In this document: one piece after another, positions 9,186 to 29,150 of the stretch
How positions within the stretch are numbered: the stretch's first letter is position 1
Layout of the letters: each line of letters starts with the position of its first letter
NCBI GenBank assembly: GCA_030765145.1
Contig: JAVCDA010000010.1
Span: 49,087-113,086, forward strand
Direction of reading: 5' to 3'
Length of the DNA: 64,000 nucleotides
Source: Candidatus Saelkia tenebricola
Lineage (GTDB): Bacteria > Omnitrophota > Gorgyraeia > Kaelpiales > Kaelpiaceae
Translations under genes and position numbers: made by a program
The notes under the pieces: generated by a model
What the model was told of the DNA's origin: nothing
Seen by the model: only the letters and a program-made list of their open reading frames with translations
The model's database searches: none

Positions 9186-11006
9186 TTATTGTGTCTCCTT
9201 CTTATCTTTTTTATTTTCTTTCGGAGCCCAACCATTTATCTTCTTGTTGTAAGTTTCAAGCTCTTCTTTCGCCAAGTTTATTTTCTCAACACTTGTAATT
9301 TTAGACTCTATTTCTTCTGTTACAAGAGAAGTTGGCTCTGCTTCTTCTATCAGCCCTTGACCCATAAATTCAACTTTTTCTTCACAAACCCGTGATACCT
9401 CATCTAAAGTAATCATGCCTTTTAATACTTTATCCACTCCATCTTCAAATAAAGTCTTCATTCCTTTCTTACGCGCTGCTTCTTTTAAGGCTACGACAGA
9501 ACTCTCTGCTACTATCATCTCCCTGAGCTCATCATCAATAAGCATGATTTCAAAAAGCCCTACTCTGCCCTGATAACCAGTCCCCTTACAGGAATCACAC
9601 CCCACCCCTTTATAAAGGTCTATTTTTTTACCGTATTTTTGTAAATGGAATCGCTCTATAACTGATTTGGTAGCTGGATAACTTTTTTTACACTCCGGAC
9701 ATATCTGCCTGGCCAATCTCTGCGCCATTACCGTAATAAGACTAGCAGATATCAAAAAAGGCTCCAGCCCCATATTGTGTAATCTTGTAACAGCGCTGGG
9801 AGCATCATTAGTATGCAAAGTAGAAAAAACCAGATGTCCTGTAAGAGCAGACTGCACAGCGATATTCGCTGTTTCTAAATCCCTGATTTCCCCAACCATT
9901 ATTATATCTGGATCATGCCTTAATATCGAACGCAATCCGCTGGAAAAAGTAAGCCCGGATTTAGGATTTATTTGAACCTGACGTATTAAAGGCAATCTAT
10001 ACTCTACAGGATCTTCAATTGTTACAATGTGCTTATCAATTGTATTAAGCTCCATTAGCGCAGAATATAAAGTTGTAGTTTTACCTGAGCCAGTCGGACC
10101 TGTTGTAAGAACCATGCCATACGGATGTGCAATTGTCTGCTTAAACATATTTAAAGAATCGGTGAAAAACCCCAGCTTCTCCAGGCCCAAAAGAACATTT
10201 GATGTATCCAATATTCTCAAAACAACATTTTCACCATTTACCGTCGGAAGGGTTGAAACTCTGACATCTACATCTTTAGCATCAACCATCACTTTAAAAT
10301 GTCCGTCTTGAGGAATTCTCGATTCTGCAATATCAAGATCAGACATAACTTTTATTCTTGATATCATCGCCATCTCCAAAGACTTTGGAGGAGAAGGGAC
10401 CTCGTATAATATGCCATCAATTCTGAAACGTATTCTTAGTTTGTCAGGCTCCGGCTCAATGTGAATATCGCTTGCCCTATCCCTTACGGCCTGCGCAACT
10501 AAAAGATTGATTATTTGAATTACAGAATCTCCTATATCATCTCCGATTTCTCCTATTTTTTGAACTATCTTTTCTGCACTGGAAACAGCCCGGTAAATTT
10601 TGTCAATTCCAGACTGCATTTCAGATCTAGTAATAAAACATGGTTTTATATTAAGGCCTGTAAAACGTCTGACTTCGGAAACAACACCATAATCTATCGG
10701 GAAAAGAAACCCTACGAAAAACCATTTTTTTATTTTAAAAAGCGGCAAAATATTGTTTTTACGGGCTAAATCTTCAGATAACAGGTAAATTGCCTCTTTG
10801 GTGGGATCAATATAGCTTAATTCTAAATATGGAATTTTACAAAACAAAGACGATTCGATTAAAATCTGGGTTTCTTTTTCCGGAAGTATCTCTGTAAGAA
10901 CTTTTAAAACATCATCGTTTCTCTGAGAAGCAACTGTTTTAGCTTTCTCTATCTGGGACGCTTCAACCACCCCATTTTCCACCAATTTATCCAGTAGCAG
11001 CTGCAT
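9186..11006 (-). CDS. pilB: Type IV pilus assembly ATPase PilB (GspE family).
   Basis: N-terminal GSPII_E N domain. Walker A is TTGPTGSGKTTTLYSAL. VGEIRD Asp box, His box, tetracysteine motif CPECK..C..C. Confidence 0.9.
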   Translation of the reverse strand: MQLLLDKLVENGVVEASQIEKAKTVASQRNDDVLKVLTEILPEKETQILIESSLFCKIPYLELSYIDPTKEAIYLLSEDLARKNNILPLFKIKKWFFVGFLFPIDYGVVSEVRRFTGLNIKPCFITRSEMQSGIDKIYRAVSSAEKIVQKIGEIGDDIGDSVIQIINLLVAQAVRDRASDIHIEPEPDKLRIRFRIDGILYEVPSPPKSLEMAMISRIKVMSDLDIAESRIPQDGHFKVMVDAKDVDVRVSTLPTVNGENVVLRILDTSNVLLGLEKLGFFTDSLNMFKQTIAHPYGMVLTTGPTGSGKTTTLYSALMELNTIDKHIVTIEDPVEYRLPLIRQVQINPKSGLTFSSGLRSILRHDPDIIMVGEIRDLETANIAVQSALTGHLVFSTLHTNDAPSAVTRLHNMGLEPFLISASLITVMAQRLARQICPECKKSYPATKSVIERFHLQKYGKKIDLYKGVGCDSCKGTGYQGRVGLFEIMLIDDELREMIVAESSVVALKEAARKKGMKTLFEDGVDKVLKGMITLDEVSRVCEEKVEFMGQGLIEEAEPTSLVTEEIESKITSVEKINLAKEELETYNKKINGWAPKENKKDKKETQ

Positions 11007-11007
11007 A

Positions 11008-11385
11008 TTAAATAATTTTTTTTATCTCTTCAAAAATAAAATCTATGTTATACACCTTGTAAAGAACCTTATCAATATTGCTGTCCTTGGCCATCTCCTG
11101 TGCATTTTCGGTAAGAGTATCTGTTATAAGAATTGACTTCATCTCTTTAAATCTGGAATCTTTTTTCAAAAACTTAAATAACAAAAATCCATCCCAATCC
11201 CATTGTGGAAATATCATCTCCAAAACTGCCACTTTGGGCTTTTGAGTCTGAATATAGTAGCAGGCATCAAAGGCTTCATCTGTAGTATAAACATTCTTTT
11301 CTGGGAAACCCTGTTTTATTTTTTCTGAAAGCAGATTTATAAATTGTGTATCGCTTCCACCAAGTATAATAAAATCCGAATTCAT
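11008..11385 (-). CDS. Stand-alone receiver-like (pseudo-REC) domain protein. Glu sits at the phosphoacceptor position.
   Basis: 125 aa with alternating beta-alpha pattern: DFIILGGSD (beta1, acidic pocket degenerate), KVAVLEMIFPQWDGF (beta3, E in place of the phospho-Asp), SILITDT (beta4 Thr), DKVLYK (beta5 Lys). Separated from pilB by 1 nt. Confidence 0.45.
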   Translation of the reverse strand: MNSDFIILGGSDTQFINLLSEKIKQGFPEKNVYTTDEAFDACYYIQTQKPKVAVLEMIFPQWDWDGFLLFKFLKKDSRFKEMKSILITDTLTENAQEMAKDSNIDKVLYKVYNIDFIFEEIKKII

Positions 11386-12893
11386 TACAAAATCTCCTTA
11401 AGAAGTCTTTCCGCTTCTTTTCTATCGTGAGCATCAGGTGCCAATTCCAAATATTTTTTAAGATAAACTCTTGCCTTATCGTAATCGTATATGTAATGCA
11501 TGTAAATTAAGGCTATATTGTAGATAGCATCAGTATCTTGAGGTAACATTTCATTCGTTTTTAAAAATTCACCTAAAGCAGCCTGGTAATTATCCTTTTT
11601 TAAATAATGTACTCCAAGATTATAATGCAGAAATGCCTCTTTACGCAGATAAACCTGTTTTTCTTCATCAGCAACGCTTTCTCCGGCTTTTTTGAGCTGA
11701 TAAATCAAGCTCGACATTGCTATCTCAGGATCTACATCTTCCACTTTCATTTTGCCTAAATCTACAACTGTTTTTACATCTTTTACTAACGGATCTTGGG
11801 AATTATCCAAAATCTTATCTAAAGATGTAATTTTTTTCTGCAGTTGCGTGTTTACCTCGGAAACTCCGCTTAAGACTTCGGAAATGTTCTTATAGCGCAG
11901 CTGAAATGTCTGTAATTCATTTTTCATCTGCTGATTTTCACCTTTAAGTTGAATGATTTGCCTCTCTTGTTTTGTAGATTCACTTTCAAGAGCGATAAAT
12001 TCTTTCTCCAAGTTCTGAATCCGTTTAACTCTTCCTAGTATCTCAACTTCTTTCTGTTTTAACTTCTTTAAAAGAGATTCTTTCTCTTGGGTTAAAATCT
12101 GTTTTTCTTCGGTTAATACCAAAACCTTCTCAGCCCTTAGGCCTACTTTAATCCGATTGTCTTCTGCTTCTTCCCGGGCTTGACTTAACCCCTGCTCCGT
12201 CTTAAAAAGTTTTGATTTTAATTCTTCTATCATAGCCCTTAAAATTCGTGCTTCTCTAACCAACATATCTTTCTCTTCTTTTGTTAAGCTTAATAGTTCA
12301 AATGTTTTCCTGTTTTTTTTCTCAAGAACTTCAATCTTATCCTGGATACCTGATAGCCTATCCATTTCAGAATCGAGTTTCTGTTTTTGTTTGGCAATTT
12401 TTTTGAATTCCAAAGAAAGCTTTCGCAATTCAAGCCTCAAACGCTCATTATCCTCTTCAACTTTATTTAAACTGTTTTTTCTTTTTGAAACTTTTTCTAT
12501 TTGTTTTTTTAGATTATTTAATTGTGAATTCAGCTGCTTCTTTTCTTCTCTCAAATCATCAATTTGAACATCTAATTCTTTAACGCGCGATTTTAATCTC
12601 GGAGTTTGCTCTACAAGCTCTCTCTTTGTATCTTTTAGAGCGCTTCTTAGGATTTCTGTTTCCCGGACTGCAGATAAAAGCTCTATTTCTAAACGGTTTA
12701 CTTCCTCTTGGGCTGCTGATCTTAAGTCCCGCTCCTTATTGATTTCTTCTATTTTTACAGACAACTCAGATTCTACAGATTTTATTGCACTTGAATAATC
12801 TCTTCTGCTCTTAGAAATAAGTACCAGCGCTGCTGCAGCACACAACACCAGTACTATTAGCATAACTTTGGATTTTTTTTTACTTTCTTCCAC
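11385..12893 (-). CDS. Membrane-anchored long coiled-coil protein with C-terminal TPR, a FimV/HubP-like scaffold candidate.
   Basis: N-terminal TM (VMLIVLVLCAAAALVLI), about 350 aa of heptad-rich E/K/L/R sequence, and a C-terminal TPR (FLHYNLGVHYLKKDNYQAALGEF..AIYNIALIYMHY..ARVYLKKYLELAPD). Confidence 0.5.
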   Translation of the reverse strand: MEESKKKSKVMLIVLVLCAAAALVLISKSRRDYSSAIKSVESELSVKIEEINKERDLRSAAQEEVNRLEIELLSAVRETEILRSALKDTKRELVEQTPRLKSRVKELDVQIDDLREEKKQLNSQLNNLKKQIEKVSKRKNSLNKVEEDNERLRLELRKLSLEFKKIAKQKQKLDSEMDRLSGIQDKIEVLEKKNRKTFELLSLTKEEKDMLVREARILRAMIEELKSKLFKTEQGLSQAREEAEDNRIKVGLRAEKVLVLTEEKQILTQEKESLLKKLKQKEVEILGRVKRIQNLEKEFIALESESTKQERQIIQLKGENQQMKNELQTFQLRYKNISEVLSGVSEVNTQLQKKITSLDKILDNSQDPLVKDVKTVVDLGKMKVEDVDPEIAMSSLIYQLKKAGESVADEEKQVYLRKEAFLHYNLGVHYLKKDNYQAALGEFLKTNEMLPQDTDAIYNIALIYMHYIYDYDKARVYLKKYLELAPDAHDRKEAERLLKEIL

Positions 12894-12897
12894 AGTT

Positions 12898-14280
12898 TTA
12901 TTCCAAATTTTTAGCCGGTTTAAAAGAGCTTTTTATTTCTATAATTTTATCTTCTTTTTTTTCCTGAGTTCTTACTATTGTTGCGGTAACAAAAATCAAC
13001 AAATCTGTCGTTTCAAATTCTTTACGTTTATGTCTAAATATAAACCCTAAGAGCGGGATATTACCTAAGATCGGAACTTTATCAACAGTATCTATCTCTT
13101 TCTGTTTTATAAGACCTCCTATTGCTACTGTTTCTCCGTCCTTTAACTGCACTTGGGTAATTACTTCCCTTGTGTCGATATAAGGTCTTTCATCATTAGG
13201 CCCGACATATACACCTGTAAAATCGCTAACCACAGGATGCAATGTGATAGTGATTTTTTCATCCGGAGACACATGCGGTGTAACCTCTAAAGAAATTCCT
13301 ACCTCTTCTTCATCGTAACCGGAGATTTCATATGTTCCGGTTTCTTCATTAAAAGTATATATCGGAATCGGAATTTTAGTTCCAACAAGAATCTTGGCTT
13401 GCTTATTATTTAAAGTCACGACTCTGGGATGAGAAAGTACTTTAGTATCGATATCTTGTTCTATAGCTTGTAAGACAGCCTGAAATTCTGTAAAATTCAA
13501 TGTCCCGAATGTAAAATCACCTGTTGTAGCATAAGGAAAACCATGGCCATAGGGAAAAGCGTCTGTAGTAACACTCCCTGCTACAGTGGAAGAACCTATG
13601 TTTTCAGGGAAAAAACTTTTGGGACCCACTTTTCTGAATGGTAAGGTATGCGGCCTCTTGGCACCGGTTGCAGTTGCTTTCATTGTCCATTTAATACCCA
13701 GCTTTTTATCATCATCGATATTGGTCTCTATAATTTTAGCTTCAATAAGAACCTGGGGGGTTTCCTTGTCTAAATTTTCGATAAGCTTACCTACATTATC
13801 AATTGCGTTAGAGGTATCGGTAACGATTAAAGCATTCGACCGGGCATTAATTTCAATGGAGCCGATATTTGAAAGGGCTTTCTCCAAGCTGGGTTTAAGA
13901 TCTTCAGCTACTGCATTGTTAAGAACAAACACCCTGGTAAAAGGAGCCTCTTTTTCTATTTCCTCAGGCGTTGTAACTTTAATAACCGACCCCTTCTTGG
14001 TATAAGCATATCCGTTGACAGTAACAATTGCATCAATTGCCTCCTCAACACTGATATTGAAGAATTTGACGCTGATATTACCTTCAACTTTATCTGATAT
14101 CACAAGATTCAAACCAAACTGCTCCGCCAACAGTCTTAAAACGTCACTTATTTTAGCATCTTTAATTTCCAGAGCTGCAATTTTATTATCTAAGATTGTA
14201 AACGTCTGCTCTTGAGATACGGCAAAGGCAATGTTGTAAAATATCATAAATAATAAAACCGTCGCGATTATTTTCTTCAT
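12898..14280 (-). CDS. pilQ: Type IV pilus secretin PilQ (GspD/secretin family).
   Basis: Signal peptide, secretin N domains (NISVEEAIDAIVTVNGYAY..VIKV), and a C-terminal secretin domain with VPILGNIPLLGFIFRHKRKEFETTDLLIFVTATIV. Confidence 0.8.
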   Translation of the reverse strand: MKKIIATVLLFMIFYNIAFAVSQEQTFTILDNKIAALEIKDAKISDVLRLLAEQFGLNLVISDKVEGNISVKFFNISVEEAIDAIVTVNGYAYTKKGSVIKVTTPEEIEKEAPFTRVFVLNNAVAEDLKPSLEKALSNIGSIEINARSNALIVTDTSNAIDNVGKLIENLDKETPQVLIEAKIIETNIDDDKKLGIKWTMKATATGAKRPHTLPFRKVGPKSFFPENIGSSTVAGSVTTDAFPYGHGFPYATTGDFTFGTLNFTEFQAVLQAIEQDIDTKVLSHPRVVTLNNKQAKILVGTKIPIPIYTFNEETGTYEISGYDEEEVGISLEVTPHVSPDEKITITLHPVVSDFTGVYVGPNDERPYIDTREVITQVQLKDGETVAIGGLIKQKEIDTVDKVPILGNIPLLGFIFRHKRKEFETTDLLIFVTATIVRTQEKKEDKIIEIKSSFKPAKNLE

Positions 14281-14284
14281 TGTA

Positions 14285-14743
14285 TTAATCTCCTTTTTCT
14301 AATCTAATCATTATATTGTTTTTATCCTCTTCTAATTTAACAGTTATATTATTCCCATCTTCTTCTACAACAACATAATCTTCATCTATTTTTACAATTC
14401 TATAAACCCCGAGAATACCTCCCTCGCGATAAAACTCCCCATTAATCATCGCAATACCTTCTCCGCTTACATCTATTGATATCGCCTCCAGGTGTATTTT
14501 CCCCGAAAATTCTTCAATAGAAGATGCTGTAAAAGGATCTTTCTTCCATTCCTGCTTCCTATTTTGAATCCTTATCTCATGAGCACCGGGAGACAATTTA
14601 AATCCCAGTGTATCATCTTCGTTGAAAAAAATCTTTTTAAGCGTAACACGACCAGCGCGTAACTGAGGGGTACCTACAAAATATATACCGAATAAAAAAC
14701 CTAATAACACTACGGTTATAAAGACAATTGCATACCTTTTCAT
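14285..14743 (-). CDS. Small membrane-anchored protein, PilP-like by position and size.
   Basis: One N-terminal TM plus a beta-rich soluble domain. Lies between pilO and pilQ as pilP does in canonical pilMNOPQ operons. Confidence 0.3.
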   Translation of the reverse strand: MKRYAIVFITVVLLGFLFGIYFVGTPQLRAGRVTLKKIFFNEDDTLGFKLSPGAHEIRIQNRKQEWKKDPFTASSIEEFSGKIHLEAISIDVSGEGIAMINGEFYREGGILGVYRIVKIDEDYVVVEEDGNNITVKLEEDKNNIMIRLEKGD

Positions 14744-15357
14744 ATCTCCTCTTTCATTATAAATTCCATTCTCAACTTGATACTAAGAAAGTCTCCGTTA
14801 ATCTTAACGATTTTAATTCTGCCAATTTCAAACATATTGCCCTTACCTTCTATATCTTCTAAAAATCTTGTGAATTTTAAGTAACTTGTTACCAATTCCA
14901 ACTCTAACCCGTATCTTTTAAAATTATAACCTAGAGCCCCCTTTAAATCATAAAGATATTTAAACCCCCCCATTTTTATCCCATGTCTTTCTAATTCGGA
15001 TATAACATTCTGAGCTGTTATGAGAAAATCTTTACTTGGGGAAATATTCTGAATTAAAGCCTTCCGACGATCTTTCAAGAGCTCTATATCTTGATCGATA
15101 TTGGGGTGCTCAGCAAGTGCATTCTCTAAAGCTAATGAATTATTGGTTATAAACGCCAGCTCTTTTTGATACCCTCTGGCTTTTTCTATTTCCGGAGAAA
15201 TAAAAATTTTGAGAACAAAACCCGCAAGCAGGATTAAACCCAAAATAGACGCTATTAAAACTCTTTTTACCTTTATAAGTCGCAATAAATATTTTAAATC
15301 ATCCGGTTTAAAATTTCTAAAAAAACCCTGAATCTCTGAATTTAAATTAGTAAACAT
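14740..15357 (-). CDS. PilO-like bitopic protein (TM plus coiled coil plus ferredoxin-like domain).
   Basis: Single TM (VLIASILGLILLAGFVL), coiled-coil segment, then a roughly 100-aa domain. Lies between pilMN and the pilP-like gene. Confidence 0.45.
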   Translation of the reverse strand: MFTNLNSEIQGFFRNFKPDDLKYLLRLIKVKRVLIASILGLILLAGFVLKIFISPEIEKARGYQKELAFITNNSLALENALAEHPNIDQDIELLKDRRKALIQNISPSKDFLITAQNVISELERHGIKMGGFKYLYDLKGALGYNFKRYGLELELVTSYLKFTRFLEDIEGKGNMFEIGRIKIVKINGDFLSIKLRMEFIMKEEI

Positions 15358-17024
15358 TTTAATTCGAAATATAATTCATTAGCATAGCTCTTATGCTTTG
15401 TGTTTAAAATCTTTAGCTCTTTAAAATAAATCGTACTTTCTAATTTCTCAACAAACTGACTTAAGATAGCATTGGGTGAACCCCATTCAGCAATAACACT
15501 CCCGTTCAATAACAAGACCCGCACCCCACCTTCTGTTTTATCTTCAATCTTACTTAAAGTAATCTCATCGGGAGTAACATTGCTTAATTCTTTTAATATC
15601 CCTATCCAATCTGGATATTGAGAATAAATTTTAGCAATACTCGTCTCTAGCTCTCCAACCTCATGCATTAATTCGTTTACCAGCTCGACTTTTTCAACTA
15701 CAGGCACAGATTCTGAGTAAACGCTCTTTGTATCGATAACGATTTTTCTCATATAAGAAATATTTAATTTAATCCCGAAATAAAAAAACAACAAAAATCC
15801 CAGCAACATCCCCAGATAAAGAAAAACTTTATTCTTCGCTTTTTGGGTTTCCCGGATAATTTTATAATGGGGAGGTAAAAGGTTATATTTTTTAATGTCC
15901 GGATACAAACACCCCAGCATAATGATTGCCTCTGCTGTTAAATTCTGAGCAATTCCTGGGTCTAATGCAATATCATCACTAATACTTATCGGATCGAAAT
16001 AAAGATACGGCAAGGAAAGTTTGCTTTCTATAAACTCACCCAGCCCCTTGATTTCTCCCCCTTCGCCGATCAGGTAAATCCCGGATATTTTTTCTGAAGT
16101 AAAACCACGTCTATATTCCTGGATAAACACATTCAACTCTTGATAAAGAATATCTAATGCAGGAGACAATAAAACTCTTAACTGCTGATAAGTGATTTCA
16201 AAGGAAGATTCTTTTTCTGCCGGATGGCTAACTTTATCCAAAATGCCTAACCTTTGCCTGTATTTAATTAGGTGCTTCCCTTCTCCCAACGGATACCCGA
16301 GTTCATTTACAATACCCCTTGCTGCTTGAGGGCTAATCTCTACCGGACCTGTTTTCGTATATACAGCTCTAATTAAGGCTTTCTGAATGTCTTTAAAACC
16401 AAAATCTATAGTTTTACAACAAACAACAAATTTATCTTTTAAAACAAACATTTCGCTATATTCTTTCTCTAATCTTAAAACTCCAATAGAATCTTCCTTA
16501 GGGATCAGTTTGAGACTGGAAAAAAGCGTCTCCGTTGCTATAGTTGAAGTTCTGACTTTTAAAACCTCTATTTCAAGATCACTTAATATACCAACAGCCC
16601 TGCTTGCAACCTCCTTGTTAACCCCCGAAACCATACCTGCAATTAAATCCTGAGCTTCGATCTTATTTATTCTGTGTCCCAAGTAATAATCCTGAAATTC
16701 GATCCCTGCATCATGAGTAATAACGTGAAAACAATGGCTTAGCGCTTCTGTCTTAGGCATTAAAGGCAAAACCTTGGCACAAGTCGCTACATAACTGGGA
16801 GAAAAAAGAAGATAAGCAGATGTAATATCTGCCTGATAAATTTCCTCAACATACTTCTTAAACAACATCCAAAAATCAGGACTACTAAGACCATCTTGAA
16901 CATAAAAAGACTTGAAGTTTTGCAGAAGAAATTTCCCTTCTTCCTTTTTAACAACAGCCAGGCGTAAGTAATTCCCCCCTATCTCTATAAGGCAAAGACG
17001 TTCTTTCTTCTTAAATAACTCCAT
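15342..17024 (-). CDS. Fused PilM-PilN (actin-like ATPase-fold PilM joined to TM/periplasmic PilN).
   Basis: N-terminus CLIEIGGNYLRLAVV (PilM/FtsA-like). After about 370 aa comes a TM (VFLYLGMLLGFLLFFYFGI) and a periplasmic region of roughly 170 aa, typical of PilN. Confidence 0.55.
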   Translation of the reverse strand: MELFKKKERLCLIEIGGNYLRLAVVKKEEGKFLLQNFKSFYVQDGLSSPDFWMLFKKYVEEIYQADITSAYLLFSPSYVATCAKVLPLMPKTEALSHCFHVITHDAGIEFQDYYLGHRINKIEAQDLIAGMVSGVNKEVASRAVGILSDLEIEVLKVRTSTIATETLFSSLKLIPKEDSIGVLRLEKEYSEMFVLKDKFVVCCKTIDFGFKDIQKALIRAVYTKTGPVEISPQAARGIVNELGYPLGEGKHLIKYRQRLGILDKVSHPAEKESSFEITYQQLRVLLSPALDILYQELNVFIQEYRRGFTSEKISGIYLIGEGGEIKGLGEFIESKLSLPYLYFDPISISDDIALDPGIAQNLTAEAIIMLGCLYPDIKKYNLLPPHYKIIRETQKAKNKVFLYLGMLLGFLLFFYFGIKLNISYMRKIVIDTKSVYSESVPVVEKVELVNELMHEVGELETSIAKIYSQYPDWIGILKELSNVTPDEITLSKIEDKTEGGVRVLLLNGSVIAEWGSPNAILSQFVEKLESTIYFKELKILNTKHKSYANELYFELKCLLI

Positions 17025-27347: not shown

Positions 27348-29150
27348 TTAACTCTTCCTTTTTAAAATTGCAATACCAAACTCGTTGGATGTAAAAGGCA
27401 TGGGGCCGAATTGTTTGATAATTTCATAATTCTGATTTATCCAAGCCGAGATTTTCCTACCGTAATCAATACCGAAGAAAGCATAGCCGTATTCAGAGGT
27501 GGGCCTATGTATAATAACAAAATAATCTATATCATGACTCTTAATCTCATCTATCATTTTTTCTTCACCGGTTCTTTCACAGCAAGGAGGAACAAATGTA
27601 TAATACCTCAGAGGGTTTTTCCTCCCGGAATAAAAATTTATCCCTACCCCTTCAGGAACAACAACTACTGTATCTTCAACAGAAGAATGTTCTATCAAAT
27701 ACTCAACCGCCTCCCAATACCTCAATGTTTTAGGTTCGGGAAAACAAAAGATGCTCCCCATTTCCGTATCCACTTTTACATTTTTAAGAGCATAGAGATA
27801 AGAAGAAATACTCCAATAAGGATTGACTAAAAACAGAAAAAGACAAAAAAGCAGAGACTGAAAAAAAAGCATTGAAAAATTATTAATCCGAATCTTTTCC
27901 ACAACCTCCTTAACTATTTGAAAGAAAAAAATGTAATAACAAATAATACTTAAACTCATCATATAAAACCCATACCCGTAGGGAGTGGTTTTTAGAATAA
28001 TCCTGGCAATGGTTAAAAAAGAAATAAGAAATAATGAGAAACAAGCTATGTTTTTCTTGAAATTACCCCCATGAATCATCCTCCAAAAGAACAAACACAT
28101 CCCTATCAATAACAGTAAGACTAAGGATCTATATTGCAAAAAATTCTTACCTAATAAATTCCAAGCCAAGATGAAGGAAAATATTATAATTATTACTCCT
28201 CCTAATGATAAAACAAAATTAGATTCTTCTTTTTTATTTAGAAAAAATGATGATATTGAAACAGCGCCTATCCCCAAAAGCAAGATAACTATTATATGCA
28301 AGATAAATGATTTAATTATTAGATAGCTATTTAAGGCAACGTTATCCAGCCCTATCCAGCTTATATTAATTACATCGTTTTTCGTTATGCCAAATTTTAC
28401 AAGGTCCAAAACAGATTCTTTAAACCCCACGAATGCCTGCATTTTAATAATAAATAAAACATAGCATAGTATGCTGATAAAAAACGGAGCAATTAAGTAC
28501 AGATTAAATTGCCAAAATTTCTTTCTGTTGGTTTTTAAAATAAAAAATTCTCCCGCCAGAACAAACCCCGCCCAAACCGGTAGCGACATATCTCCCCGGC
28601 ATAAAAAAGCACATACTAAAAAACCTCCCCACCCCAAGAGGTTTTTTCCATTTTCATAATATATAAATTTTAAAAAATAATACAAAGCTGCCGTTATAAA
28701 CAATATGAAGAATGTTGCGGCAAAGCTATAAGGTAAAATAAAATTAAAAATCCCACCACTATAATACCCAAACGCAAAAACAAACATAAAAGTTATAATG
28801 ACCAAAAAAGACCCTGCTTCATTCAAAAAGAAACGGGATATTTTATAAAGAAGAATCGTCATTAAGGCGGTTATACCAACTCCTGCCCCGACTAAAGAAT
28901 AAATAGAAACCCCGAATATCTTGTATACTAAAGCCAATACATAGGGCGGTAAAAAACCGTATTCATGGAACAAATCTTTATAAATTACTCTACCTTCTAA
29001 AATCTGTAAAGGCATCCATAACTCTCGAGAAGTATCTACAATAAGATTGCCCCATTTAAGCCAGCTCGTAAAAAGCAGGTATATGAAACAACCAACTGCT
29101 GCGAGAAAAAATACTGTTGTAAGATTTATGCGCTTATATCCAATCCGCAT
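27348..29150 (-). CDS. Large polytopic membrane protein (600 aa) with a C-terminal soluble domain, possibly a GT-C-like glycosyltransferase or polymerase.
   Basis: At least 12 hydrophobic segments, and a C-terminal ~130 aa hydrophilic region with a CC pair. No recognisable catalytic motif. Confidence 0.3.
   Translation of the reverse strand: MRIGYKRINLTTVFFLAAVGCFIYLLFTSWLKWGNLIVDTSRELWMPLQILEGRVIYKDLFHEYGFLPPYVLALVYKIFGVSIYSLVGAGVGITALMTILLYKISRFFLNEAGSFLVIITFMFVFAFGYYSGGIFNFILPYSFAATFFILFITAALYYFLKFIYYENGKNLLGWGGFLVCAFLCRGDMSLPVWAGFVLAGEFFILKTNRKKFWQFNLYLIAPFFISILCYVLFIIKMQAFVGFKESVLDLVKFGITKNDVINISWIGLDNVALNSYLIIKSFILHIIVILLLGIGAVSISSFFLNKKEESNFVLSLGGVIIIIFSFILAWNLLGKNFLQYRSLVLLLLIGMCLFFWRMIHGGNFKKNIACFSLFLISFLTIARIILKTTPYGYGFYMMSLSIICYYIFFFQIVKEVVEKIRINNFSMLFFQSLLFCLFLFLVNPYWSISSYLYALKNVKVDTEMGSIFCFPEPKTLRYWEAVEYLIEHSSVEDTVVVVPEGVGINFYSGRKNPLRYYTFVPPCCERTGEEKMIDEIKSHDIDYFVIIHRPTSEYGYAFFGIDYGRKISAWINQNYEIIKQFGPMPFTSNEFGIAILKRKS

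Follow-up and report, generated by a model that had tools for sequence, protein, structure and literature searches.

Is a receiver-like protein that carries Glu at the position of the phosphorylated Asp, and whose gene lies directly before pilB, a permanently active switch for the motor that drives type IV pili? The question was raised by the initial annotation of a 64,000 nt stretch of DNA from Candidatus Saelkia tenebricola (Omnitrophota; contig JAVCDA010000010.1, positions 49,087 to 113,086; this whole stretch is hereafter called the window). Inspection of the 125-residue protein, of its relatives and of their gene neighbourhoods points to a pseudo-receiver with a remodelled former active site, which would probably serve as a phosphorylation-independent accessory of the PilB motor. 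How bacterial pseudo-receivers are switched on or off has been described as largely unknown (PMC12632262), and the recruitment and regulation of PilB are likewise an open question (PMC11656802). In Omnitrophota, it has been proposed that attachment and host dependence are based on type IV pili (PMC10066038).

The gene and the predicted fold of its product

The gene is located on the minus strand at 11008..11385, where inspection of the open reading frame (ORF) and of its sequence found it as annotated: an ATG start and 125 codons (coding sequence 11011-11385), followed by a TAA stop. A protein identical to its product is on public record as MDP8233409.1, a 'hypothetical protein' of Candidatus Saelkia tenebricola. 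Pairwise comparisons with orthologues gave ratios of non-synonymous to synonymous substitution rates (dN/dS) of 0.07-0.16; for the pair of loci L001 and L008, the ratio was 0.11 at a dS of 0.71. These ratios mark the ORF as a real gene that evolves under purifying selection.

The Pfam model for receiver domains (Response_reg, PF00072) matched the protein with an E-value of 6.2e-5 and 23.6 bits, below its gathering cut-off of 30.2 bits, and some homologues carry a precomputed match to the same model. NCBIfam and PDB sequence searches returned weak matches, to response regulators only, and outside the protein's own family a profile search retrieved receiver-type proteins only. When AlphaFold2 was run with nine homologues, one of the five models was good, with a predicted local distance difference test score (pLDDT) of 88. 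With 26 homologues all five models scored above 90, the best reaching a pLDDT of 94.2 and a predicted template-modelling score of 0.88. The predicted topology consists of five β-α units, with strands at residues 2-9, 31-35, 50-56, 83-88 and 106-109. In a Foldseek search of the PDB with this model the top matches were all receiver domains (template-modelling (TM) scores of 0.80-0.85, probability 1.0), and the matches included RR468, DivK, Spo0F, PhoB and the FrzS pseudo-receiver. The predicted structure is thus that of a (βα)5 receiver, in agreement with the initial annotation, and a different fold, for example a Rossmann-like domain, is excluded by the modelled topology and the Foldseek matches. 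The protein is a bare single domain, with neither a C-terminal extension nor a known receiver motif for the binding of cyclic di-GMP (c-di-GMP). It has no signal peptide, and should therefore be cytoplasmic.

Residues at the former active site

Active-site positions were assigned in three independent alignments: phmmer alignments to PDB entry 3cnb and RR468, a MAFFT alignment with CheY, Spo0F and RR468, and an alignment of 160 generic receiver domains to a hidden Markov model (HMM) of the protein's family. The sequences of CheY, Spo0F, RR468, FrzS and PilH that were used with MAFFT or for HMM scores serve for orientation only; the assignments rest independently on the phmmer alignments to PDB sequences and on the 160 database domains. 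All three alignments placed Glu56 (codon GAG at 11218..11220, minus strand), the last residue of β3 (residues 50-56), in the phospho-Asp column, which holds Asp in 145 of the 160 generic receivers. By alignment, then, Glu56 occupies the phosphoacceptor position, as had been annotated; the comparison with CheY put no genuine Asp at this site. Glu56 is invariant in all 26 family members.

The acidic region of β1, which the initial annotation had listed among the recognisable features of the fold, turned out not to provide the catalytic acidic pair. The β1-α1 loop reads Gly10-Ser11-Asp12 (codons GGA AGC GAT, 11350..11358, minus strand), and the two metal-binding positions, DD1 and DD2, correspond to Gly10 and Ser11. 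Gly10 is invariant and position 11 is Ser or Gly in the family, a combination present in all 25 full-length members; in generic receivers DD1 is Asp or Glu in 126 of 131 aligned sequences and DD2 is Asp in 113 of 132. Asp12 (DD+1), which is not a metal ligand, is invariant too, and this position is acidic (Asp or Glu) in most receivers.

Two further residues named in the initial annotation were found in place, although only one of them is fixed. Thr88, at the end of β4, aligns with the β4 Thr of receivers (Thr or Ser in 149 of 160); it is kept in the window protein and its closest clade and is Met, Leu, Ser or Val elsewhere. Not counting the window protein there are 25 full-length members, of which 15 have Leu or Met here. 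Lys110 (11056..11058, minus strand) aligns with the β5 Lys (Lys in 111 of 121 aligned generic receivers) and is invariant. The Pro that usually follows this Lys is absent (Val in the window protein; Val, Ile, Thr, Ser or Gly in the family), and the aromatic switch position three residues before it is Val here and Val, Ile, Leu or His in the family. Two features set these proteins apart from canonical receivers. The residue after Thr88, Asp89 (11119..11121, minus strand), is invariant, where canonical receivers usually have Ala, Gly, Ser or Asn. In addition, the β3-α3 loop (Pro60-Gln-Trp-Asp-Trp-Asp-Gly66; 11188..11208, minus strand) contains a two-residue insertion, Trp62-Asp63, relative to canonical receivers.

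Pseudo-receivers are receivers lacking at least one of the five conserved active-site residues, and aspartate-less receivers are the subset lacking the phospho-Asp (PMC12632262, PMC4395418). In the window protein DD1, DD2 and the phospho-Asp are replaced by Gly, Ser and Glu, and on this sequence evidence it is a pseudo-receiver of the aspartate-less subset, Glu type. Since Glu is the commonest replacement in aspartate-less receivers (26%; PMC4395418), Glu56 is not unusual in itself. The kinase independence that had been suggested for the protein is almost certain: the metal-binding pair is lost in addition to the Asp-to-Glu change, and a Pfam scan of the window's long ORFs detected no HisKA, HPt, CheA, second receiver or chemosensory gene.

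A small family conserved around the remodelled pocket

A word-indexed search found nine close homologues of the protein. In a profile search of 1.84 billion representative proteins, only three clusters (at 50% identity) scored better than E = 1e-10, beyond which the matches were to generic receiver-type proteins; a second profile search enlarged the family to 26 clusters of 32-81% identity. A source name was attached to four of the 26 clusters, in each case Omnitrophota, and two peptide patterns, one of them PQWDW[DN]G, retrieved only six confirmed relatives from 185,579 species genomes. The family is small and apparently restricted to Omnitrophota.

Thirteen residues are invariant down to 32% identity: G10, D12, P50, E56, W62, D63, W64, G66, K74, D76, R78, D89 and K110. 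Across the family the β1-α1 loop reads G-[GS]-D and the β3-α3 loop P-[QN]-W-D-W-[DN]-G. The weighted column entropy was lowest in these two loops (0.22 and 0.53 bits, respectively), followed by helix α3 (0.98 bits), while helix α4 was variable (1.77 bits). Constraint is therefore found along the former active site's rim and in α3, and not on the classical α4-β5-α5 output face.

Association with the pilus operon

The gene order coiled-coil/tetratricopeptide repeat (TPR) protein, receiver-like protein, PilB was found in all 13 loci examined; wherever the genes had been called, they overlap or lie no more than 3 nt apart. Across these loci the receiver-like protein is 33-81% identical and PilB 60-81%. 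In the window, the stop codon of the coiled-coil/TPR gene and the start codon of the pseudo-receiver gene overlap by one base (TAATG, 11383..11387, minus strand); at the other end (11004..11010, minus strand) the TAA stop (11008-11010) is separated by a single base from the pilB ATG (11004-11006). The junction with pilB is equally tight in relatives, with gaps of 3 nt (L001) or 1 nt (L004 and L012) and overlaps of 8 nt (L011) or 11 nt (L013). The position directly before pilB in 13 of 13 loci agrees with the association with the pilus motor made in the initial annotation, and the conserved arrangement of these genes strongly suggests that the 125-residue protein is linked to that motor.

The whole cluster lies on the minus strand and encodes, in order, a PilM-PilN fusion, a PilO-like protein, a PilP-like protein, a secretin, the coiled-coil/TPR protein, the pseudo-receiver, PilB, PilC, a PilZ-domain protein and a family-2 glycosyltransferase. 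The PilM-PilN fusion (15342-17024; 560 residues) was recognised by weak Pfam matches (PilM_2, 3.4e-3; PilN, 4.3e-3) and is conserved as a fusion in related loci. It is followed by the PilO-like (14740-15357), PilP-like (14285-14743) and secretin (12898-14280) genes, all three assigned by Pfam. The order of this part of the operon (12898..17024) is conserved in L001-L013.

The coiled-coil/TPR protein (11385..12893; 502 residues) is membrane-anchored, with weak Pfam and NCBIfam matches to TPR, PilW and Tgl. It consists of an N-terminal anchor, some 350 residues of coiled coil and C-terminal TPR repeats. In two more distant loci, L016 (5260-7004) and L017 (4914-7011), it is split into two genes, one for a coiled-coil protein with only an N-terminal anchor and one for a TPR protein that carries a signal peptide of its own. 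On these grounds the coiled-coil/TPR part is expected to be periplasmic. These split genes point to a long periplasmic coiled-coil/TPR component encoded beside the secretin gene.

PilB (9186..11006; 606 residues) is an extension ATPase of the PilB/GspE family with an MshEN-type N-terminal domain followed by T2SSE (Pfam, 1.5e-139); the NCBIfam models for PilB and GspE gave it 587 and 578 bits, both under their cut-offs. It matches a Candidatus Saelkia tenebricola protein with 100% identity. The PilC/GspF platform protein (7960..9183; 407 residues; T2SSF, 1.2e-53) comes next, and the last pilus gene of the operon encodes a PilZ-domain protein (7304..7963; 219 residues; PilZ, 8.4e-9) with a hydrophobic, probably membrane-spanning, N-terminal half. 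As read from the translation, its C-terminal PilZ domain keeps the c-di-GMP-binding motifs RxxxR (RRALR) and DxSxxG (DFSTTG). The MshEN c-di-GMP motif (R-[LIVM]-G-x-x-[LIVM][LIVM]-x-x-G...) was absent from the PilB N-termini of the 11 loci inspected, which included loci with and without the receiver gene; an anticorrelation between this motif and the receiver gene was accordingly rejected, the motif being present in none of the 11. If c-di-GMP controls this pilus machine, its entry point is probably the 219-residue PilZ protein, judging from the motifs retained.

Some relatives carry additional genes. An AAA_22 ATPase gene of about 275 codons lies between pilB and pilC in L004 (9351-10178), L012 (7940-8767), L013 (10480-11307) and L014 (8855-9670). 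It is absent from the window (9183-9186) and from the Kaelpia loci (L001), where it is read as lost. Its product resembles ExeA/MshM, and the overall gene order is similar to that of the MSHA pilus operon. Directly after the PilZ gene, L012 (10624-13441) and L013 (13151-15948) encode a HisKA kinase and a sigma54-type response regulator, a pair resembling PilS/PilR. The window cluster lacks this pair, and its PilZ gene is followed by the glycosyltransferase gene. A scan of the window operon for promoters and terminators was uninformative: promoter-like sites were as frequent as in shuffled sequence, and terminator-like sites were only slightly more frequent (about 1.3 standard deviations).

Sister receivers in the same position and canonical relatives

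Among PilB homologues, identity falls from 62% (785 bits) to 53% (652 bits). Four loci from the tier below this step (48-55% identical), plus one more, were inspected. L014 encodes a receiver directly before PilB that has kept the phospho-Asp, with Ser at DD2 and Ala at the Thr position. The receiver in the same slot of L015 has Thr-Ser at the DD positions, Glu at the phospho-Asp position and no Lys. In L018 (P0025), the receiver directly before PilB has Asp-Thr at the DD positions, Glu at the phospho-Asp position, Ala at the Thr position and Arg at the Lys position. L016 and L017 have a pilus cluster of the same type with no receiver in the slot, which holds the separate TPR gene instead. A further candidate, L019 (P0035), was set aside because its contig ends 31 codons into the downstream gene, leaving adjacency to PilB unconfirmed.

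The syntenic sister receivers have Asp, Glu or Ser at the phosphoacceptor site, together with other losses. With the HMM of the Glu56 family the slot receivers scored 47-57 bits; RR468 and FrzS scored about 24 bits, PilH 19 and CheY 12, these four being comparison sequences that serve for orientation only. The pattern suggests that receivers encoded beside PilB form a broader group in which active sites have decayed in different ways, and within which the Glu56 family would then have fixed one particular remodelled pocket. The slot receivers look like the products of progressive remodelling after the loss of phosphotransfer, and not of a single activating substitution.

Metagenome contigs were also scanned, with an outgroup alignment (A6), and 80 loci were returned. 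In 79 of them (the L022-L100 set) the protein was a canonical single-domain receiver of about 123 residues with the motif DGYKVCRLLKFD and with the DDE, D, T and K residues all intact. In about 60 of these loci a PilC (T2SSF) gene follows 50-120 nt downstream on the same strand, and no PilB was found within 5 kb of the PilC-adjacent canonical receivers in this set. One locus, L067, seemed to place a canonical receiver before a 'PilB', but the match covered only the N-terminal 140 residues at 25% identity and was not counted. The only annotated locus, L034 (3435-6698), encodes a PAS-kinase-receiver hybrid, a receiver-HisKA-HATPase-GGDEF protein, a receiver, PilC and pilins. The 79 canonical receivers scored 40-57 bits against the HMM of the Glu56 family (median 48.8), equal to the best canonical match in the representative library. 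On these scores and loci, the nearest canonical relatives are therefore receivers of pilus loci with adjoining kinases. The pseudo-receiver family probably descends from such a kinase-controlled single-domain receiver, as judged by HMM scores and not by a tree.

Proposed role and alternative explanations

We consider it reasonably probable that the protein assists or regulates the PilB motor independently of phosphorylation, and that its interface is formed by the conserved rim around the former active site together with α3. It would be a stand-alone cytoplasmic pseudo-receiver, dedicated to the Omnitrophota type IV pilus machine and co-expressed with it. With Glu for the acceptor Asp, and Gly and Ser for the Mg2+-binding acidic residues, it would not be phosphorylatable in the manner of two-component systems. 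Protein-protein contact with PilB, or with a PilB-PilM-PilC motor subcomplex, would tune the recruitment of PilB or its ATPase activity. The contact surface would be an 'active-site crown' made up of the G-[GS]-D loop, Glu56, the Trp-Asp-Trp insertion, Asp89, Lys110 and helix α3.

We infer a cytoplasmic partner, PilB being the candidate and the crown the interface; within reach would be PilB itself, the part of PilM-N that lies in the cytoplasm, PilC and the PilZ domain. Among these, PilB is favoured because of the gene adjacency and the tight junction, which is compatible with translational coupling, and, within this proposal, the chance that it is the direct partner is about even. The accessory role is proposed on the strength of this arrangement and of precedents: PilB is bound by EmvR, which represses its ATPase (PMC11973254), and by DrdR, which also binds PilT (PMC13507683); the degenerate REC domain of FimX affects localisation (PMC11656802); and in FrzS it is the pseudo-receiver that recruits SgmX to activate pili (PMC9811614).

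Some objections to this proposal can be raised. What singles out PilB is the adjacency of the genes, and as partners in the cytoplasm PilM, PilC, the PilZ protein or, in relatives, the AAA_22 protein could be reached just as well. Since the L016 and L017 clusters have no receiver, the protein is dispensable for the machine in some lineages. The relation to the canonical PilC-adjacent receivers is one of HMM scores, not of phylogeny. Finally, the invariant pocket of acidic residues and Lys could equally mean that the binding of a ligand or metal has been retained.

The initial annotation took Glu56 for a possible phosphomimetic; in this reading it would lock the active conformation and make the protein a constitutively 'on' CheY-like activator of PilB or of the PilZ protein. 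We regard this as unlikely. It is true that Glu56 and Lys110 are invariant, that several response regulators are partially activated by an Asp-to-Glu change and Glu is what aspartate-less receivers most often carry at this site (PMC4395418, PMC12632262), and that solved Asp-to-Glu receivers (VbrR D51E, 7e90; PhoB D10A/D53E, 2jb9) are among the Foldseek matches. Foldseek does not, however, separate active from inactive templates, and a structural salt bridge or a role at an interface would explain the invariance of the Glu-Lys pair equally well. In the view of the Bourret-lab review (PMC12632262), a Glu that mimics phosphorylation does so by engaging the Thr and Lys that receivers conserve. Most family members have replaced the Thr that this mechanism needs by Leu, Met, Ser or Val, and neither the aromatic switch residue nor the Lys-Pro motif is present. 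Moreover, an Asp-to-Glu change alone is often insufficient, as in CheY, PhoB and Spo0A, and in ChxR, a natural Glu-type receiver, replacing the Glu with Asp or Ala left activity unchanged (PMC4395418). The Asp, Glu or Ser found at this site in the syntenic sister proteins also speaks against a fixed mimic of phosphorylation. Still less probable is genuine phosphorylation of Glu56, or of an alternative Asp such as Asp63; given that both metal-binding acidic positions are Gly and Ser/Gly family-wide, that the long ORFs scanned in the window include no kinase, and that phosphorylation of Glu is not known from bacterial two-component signalling (PMC4395418), this is scarcely credible. The retained Lys110 and the acidic residues clustered near the site would suit it, as would the HisKA kinases in the clusters of L012 and L013, but these kinases are paired with sigma54-type response regulators of their own.

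The conservation of the pocket could also mean that it is still an input site, in which Asp12, Glu56, Asp63, Asp89 and Lys110, under a Trp-Asp-Trp lid, bind a metal, a ligand or a side chain of a partner, so that the protein would be a switch of a non-phosphoryl kind. The strongest conservation does lie on the loops around the former active site and not on the α4-β5-α5 face, unlike the general lack of shared constrained positions in pseudo-receivers (PMC12632262), and the two-residue Trp-Asp insertion is unique to the family. Yet the ligand is purely hypothetical, the bare 125-residue domain lacks the C-terminal extension and the known c-di-GMP-binding motif noted above, and conservation of the crown would be expected just as much if it were a fixed protein-protein interface or a network of structural salt bridges; we consider such a switch rather improbable. 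Slightly more improbable again would be a rebuilt pocket that senses a metal, some small molecule or a residue of a partner and signals directly to the PilB motor, as a non-phosphoryl receiver switch within the core pilus operon of these ultra-small, possibly host-dependent Omnitrophota. A different partner, the upstream coiled-coil/TPR protein, would recall PilG and FimL on the FimV hub; its gene always overlaps or abuts the receiver-like gene, and the two proteins diverge at similar rates. This possibility is very slight, and the signal peptides of the split TPR genes in L016 and L017 disfavour it: the coiled-coil/TPR part would be periplasmic, with only some ten residues facing the cytoplasm, and the receiver-like protein has no signal peptide.

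The family offers three useful features: an invariant position beside PilB, an unusually conserved remodelled pocket, and intermediate and canonical relatives in pilus loci. It could be a model for the conversion of a phosphorylation-driven pilus regulator into a fixed accessory of the motor, and it is a test case for how pseudo-receivers work.

Other genes in the window

A pilin-like gene with an N-terminal methylation motif (4243-4602) lies beside the pilus operon. The adjacent region (394-7278) also encodes three family-2 glycosyltransferases, a PMT_2-type membrane glycosyltransferase (4774-6609) and two TPR-tailed membrane proteins, one of them with a PMT_2 match; it may be a module for the glycosylation of pilin or of the cell surface. 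A long run of genes on one strand (30341-50692) encodes four radical SAM enzymes of the B12-binding or SPASM type, several NAD-dependent sugar epimerases/dehydratases, split transketolase-like and E1 dehydrogenase subunits, a nucleotidyl transferase, a GHMP kinase, an aminotransferase and glycosyltransferases. By its content this run resembles a cluster for the synthesis of an unusual sugar or glycan. Two long ORFs on the minus strand, at 27348-29150 (600 residues) and 32090-34387 (765 residues), had no Pfam match at E <= 1e-5.

Comparison with known systems

A Glu-type aspartate-less receiver that acts through protein-protein contact is already well known. Such receivers, of which ChxR is an example (PMC4395418, PMC12632262), share with the window protein the receiver fold, the replacement of Asp by Glu, the loss of the second acidic residue and the retained Lys; they too are independent of phosphorylation and have no partner kinase encoded nearby. 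The window protein differs in being a single domain with no output domain and in having Gly and Ser at both acidic positions, and its family in the Trp-Asp-Trp loop insertion, the invariant Asp after the Thr position and the location in a core pilus operon.

In Myxococcus xanthus, the pseudo-receiver of FrzS (PDB 2gkg, 2i6f; PMC1974792, PMC9811614) regulates type IV pili by contacts between proteins. It cannot bind Mg2+ or a phosphoryl analogue, and it is a structural neighbour of the window protein (TM score 0.83); FrzS, used as a comparison sequence for orientation, scored only about 25 bits against the family HMM. FrzS, however, has Ala at the phospho-Asp site and a long C-terminal coiled coil fused to the receiver, and it acts through SgmX at the cell pole, not from a position beside PilB.

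The Xanthomonas proteins EmvR and DrdR (PMC11973254, PMC13507683) also resemble the window protein in being receiver-only, with no output domain, and their binding to PilB changes its ATPase activity. DrdR even contains a pseudo-receiver domain (PMC13507683). EmvR and the REC2 domain of DrdR nevertheless keep a functional phospho-Asp, which they need, and both proteins are orphans encoded outside the pilus operon; for the window protein, it is the invariant adjacency to PilB that has been observed. The N-terminal REC domain of FimX likewise lacks the acceptor Asp, and it influences PilB and the localisation of pili (PMC11656802, PMC8389850), but FimX is a REC-PAS-GGDEF-EAL protein of about 700 residues and not a single domain. 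The PilZ adaptor of the PilB-PilZ-FimX complex is, like the window protein, small, and binds the N-terminal domain of PilB (PMC11656802, PMC8389850). The fold of this Xanthomonas PilZ is a different one, and the PilZ protein of the window is membrane-associated and keeps its c-di-GMP motifs.

PilG and PilH of the Pil-Chp system are single-domain receivers that control type IV pili, and PilG influences the polar recruitment of PilB (PMC11656802). They are canonical receivers, phosphorylated by ChpA and belonging to a chemosensory cluster, whereas the window protein has no acceptor Asp and the Pfam scan of the window's long ORFs detected no such genes, so that the distinction from PilG/PilH drawn in the initial annotation stands. 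A degenerate receiver fold that serves localisation and not phosphotransfer is also present in a pilus-assembly locus in the case of TadZ/CpaE of Tad pili. There it is fused to an ATPase domain of the MinD/ParA type and belongs to the Tad system, not to a PilB-type machine such as that of the window.

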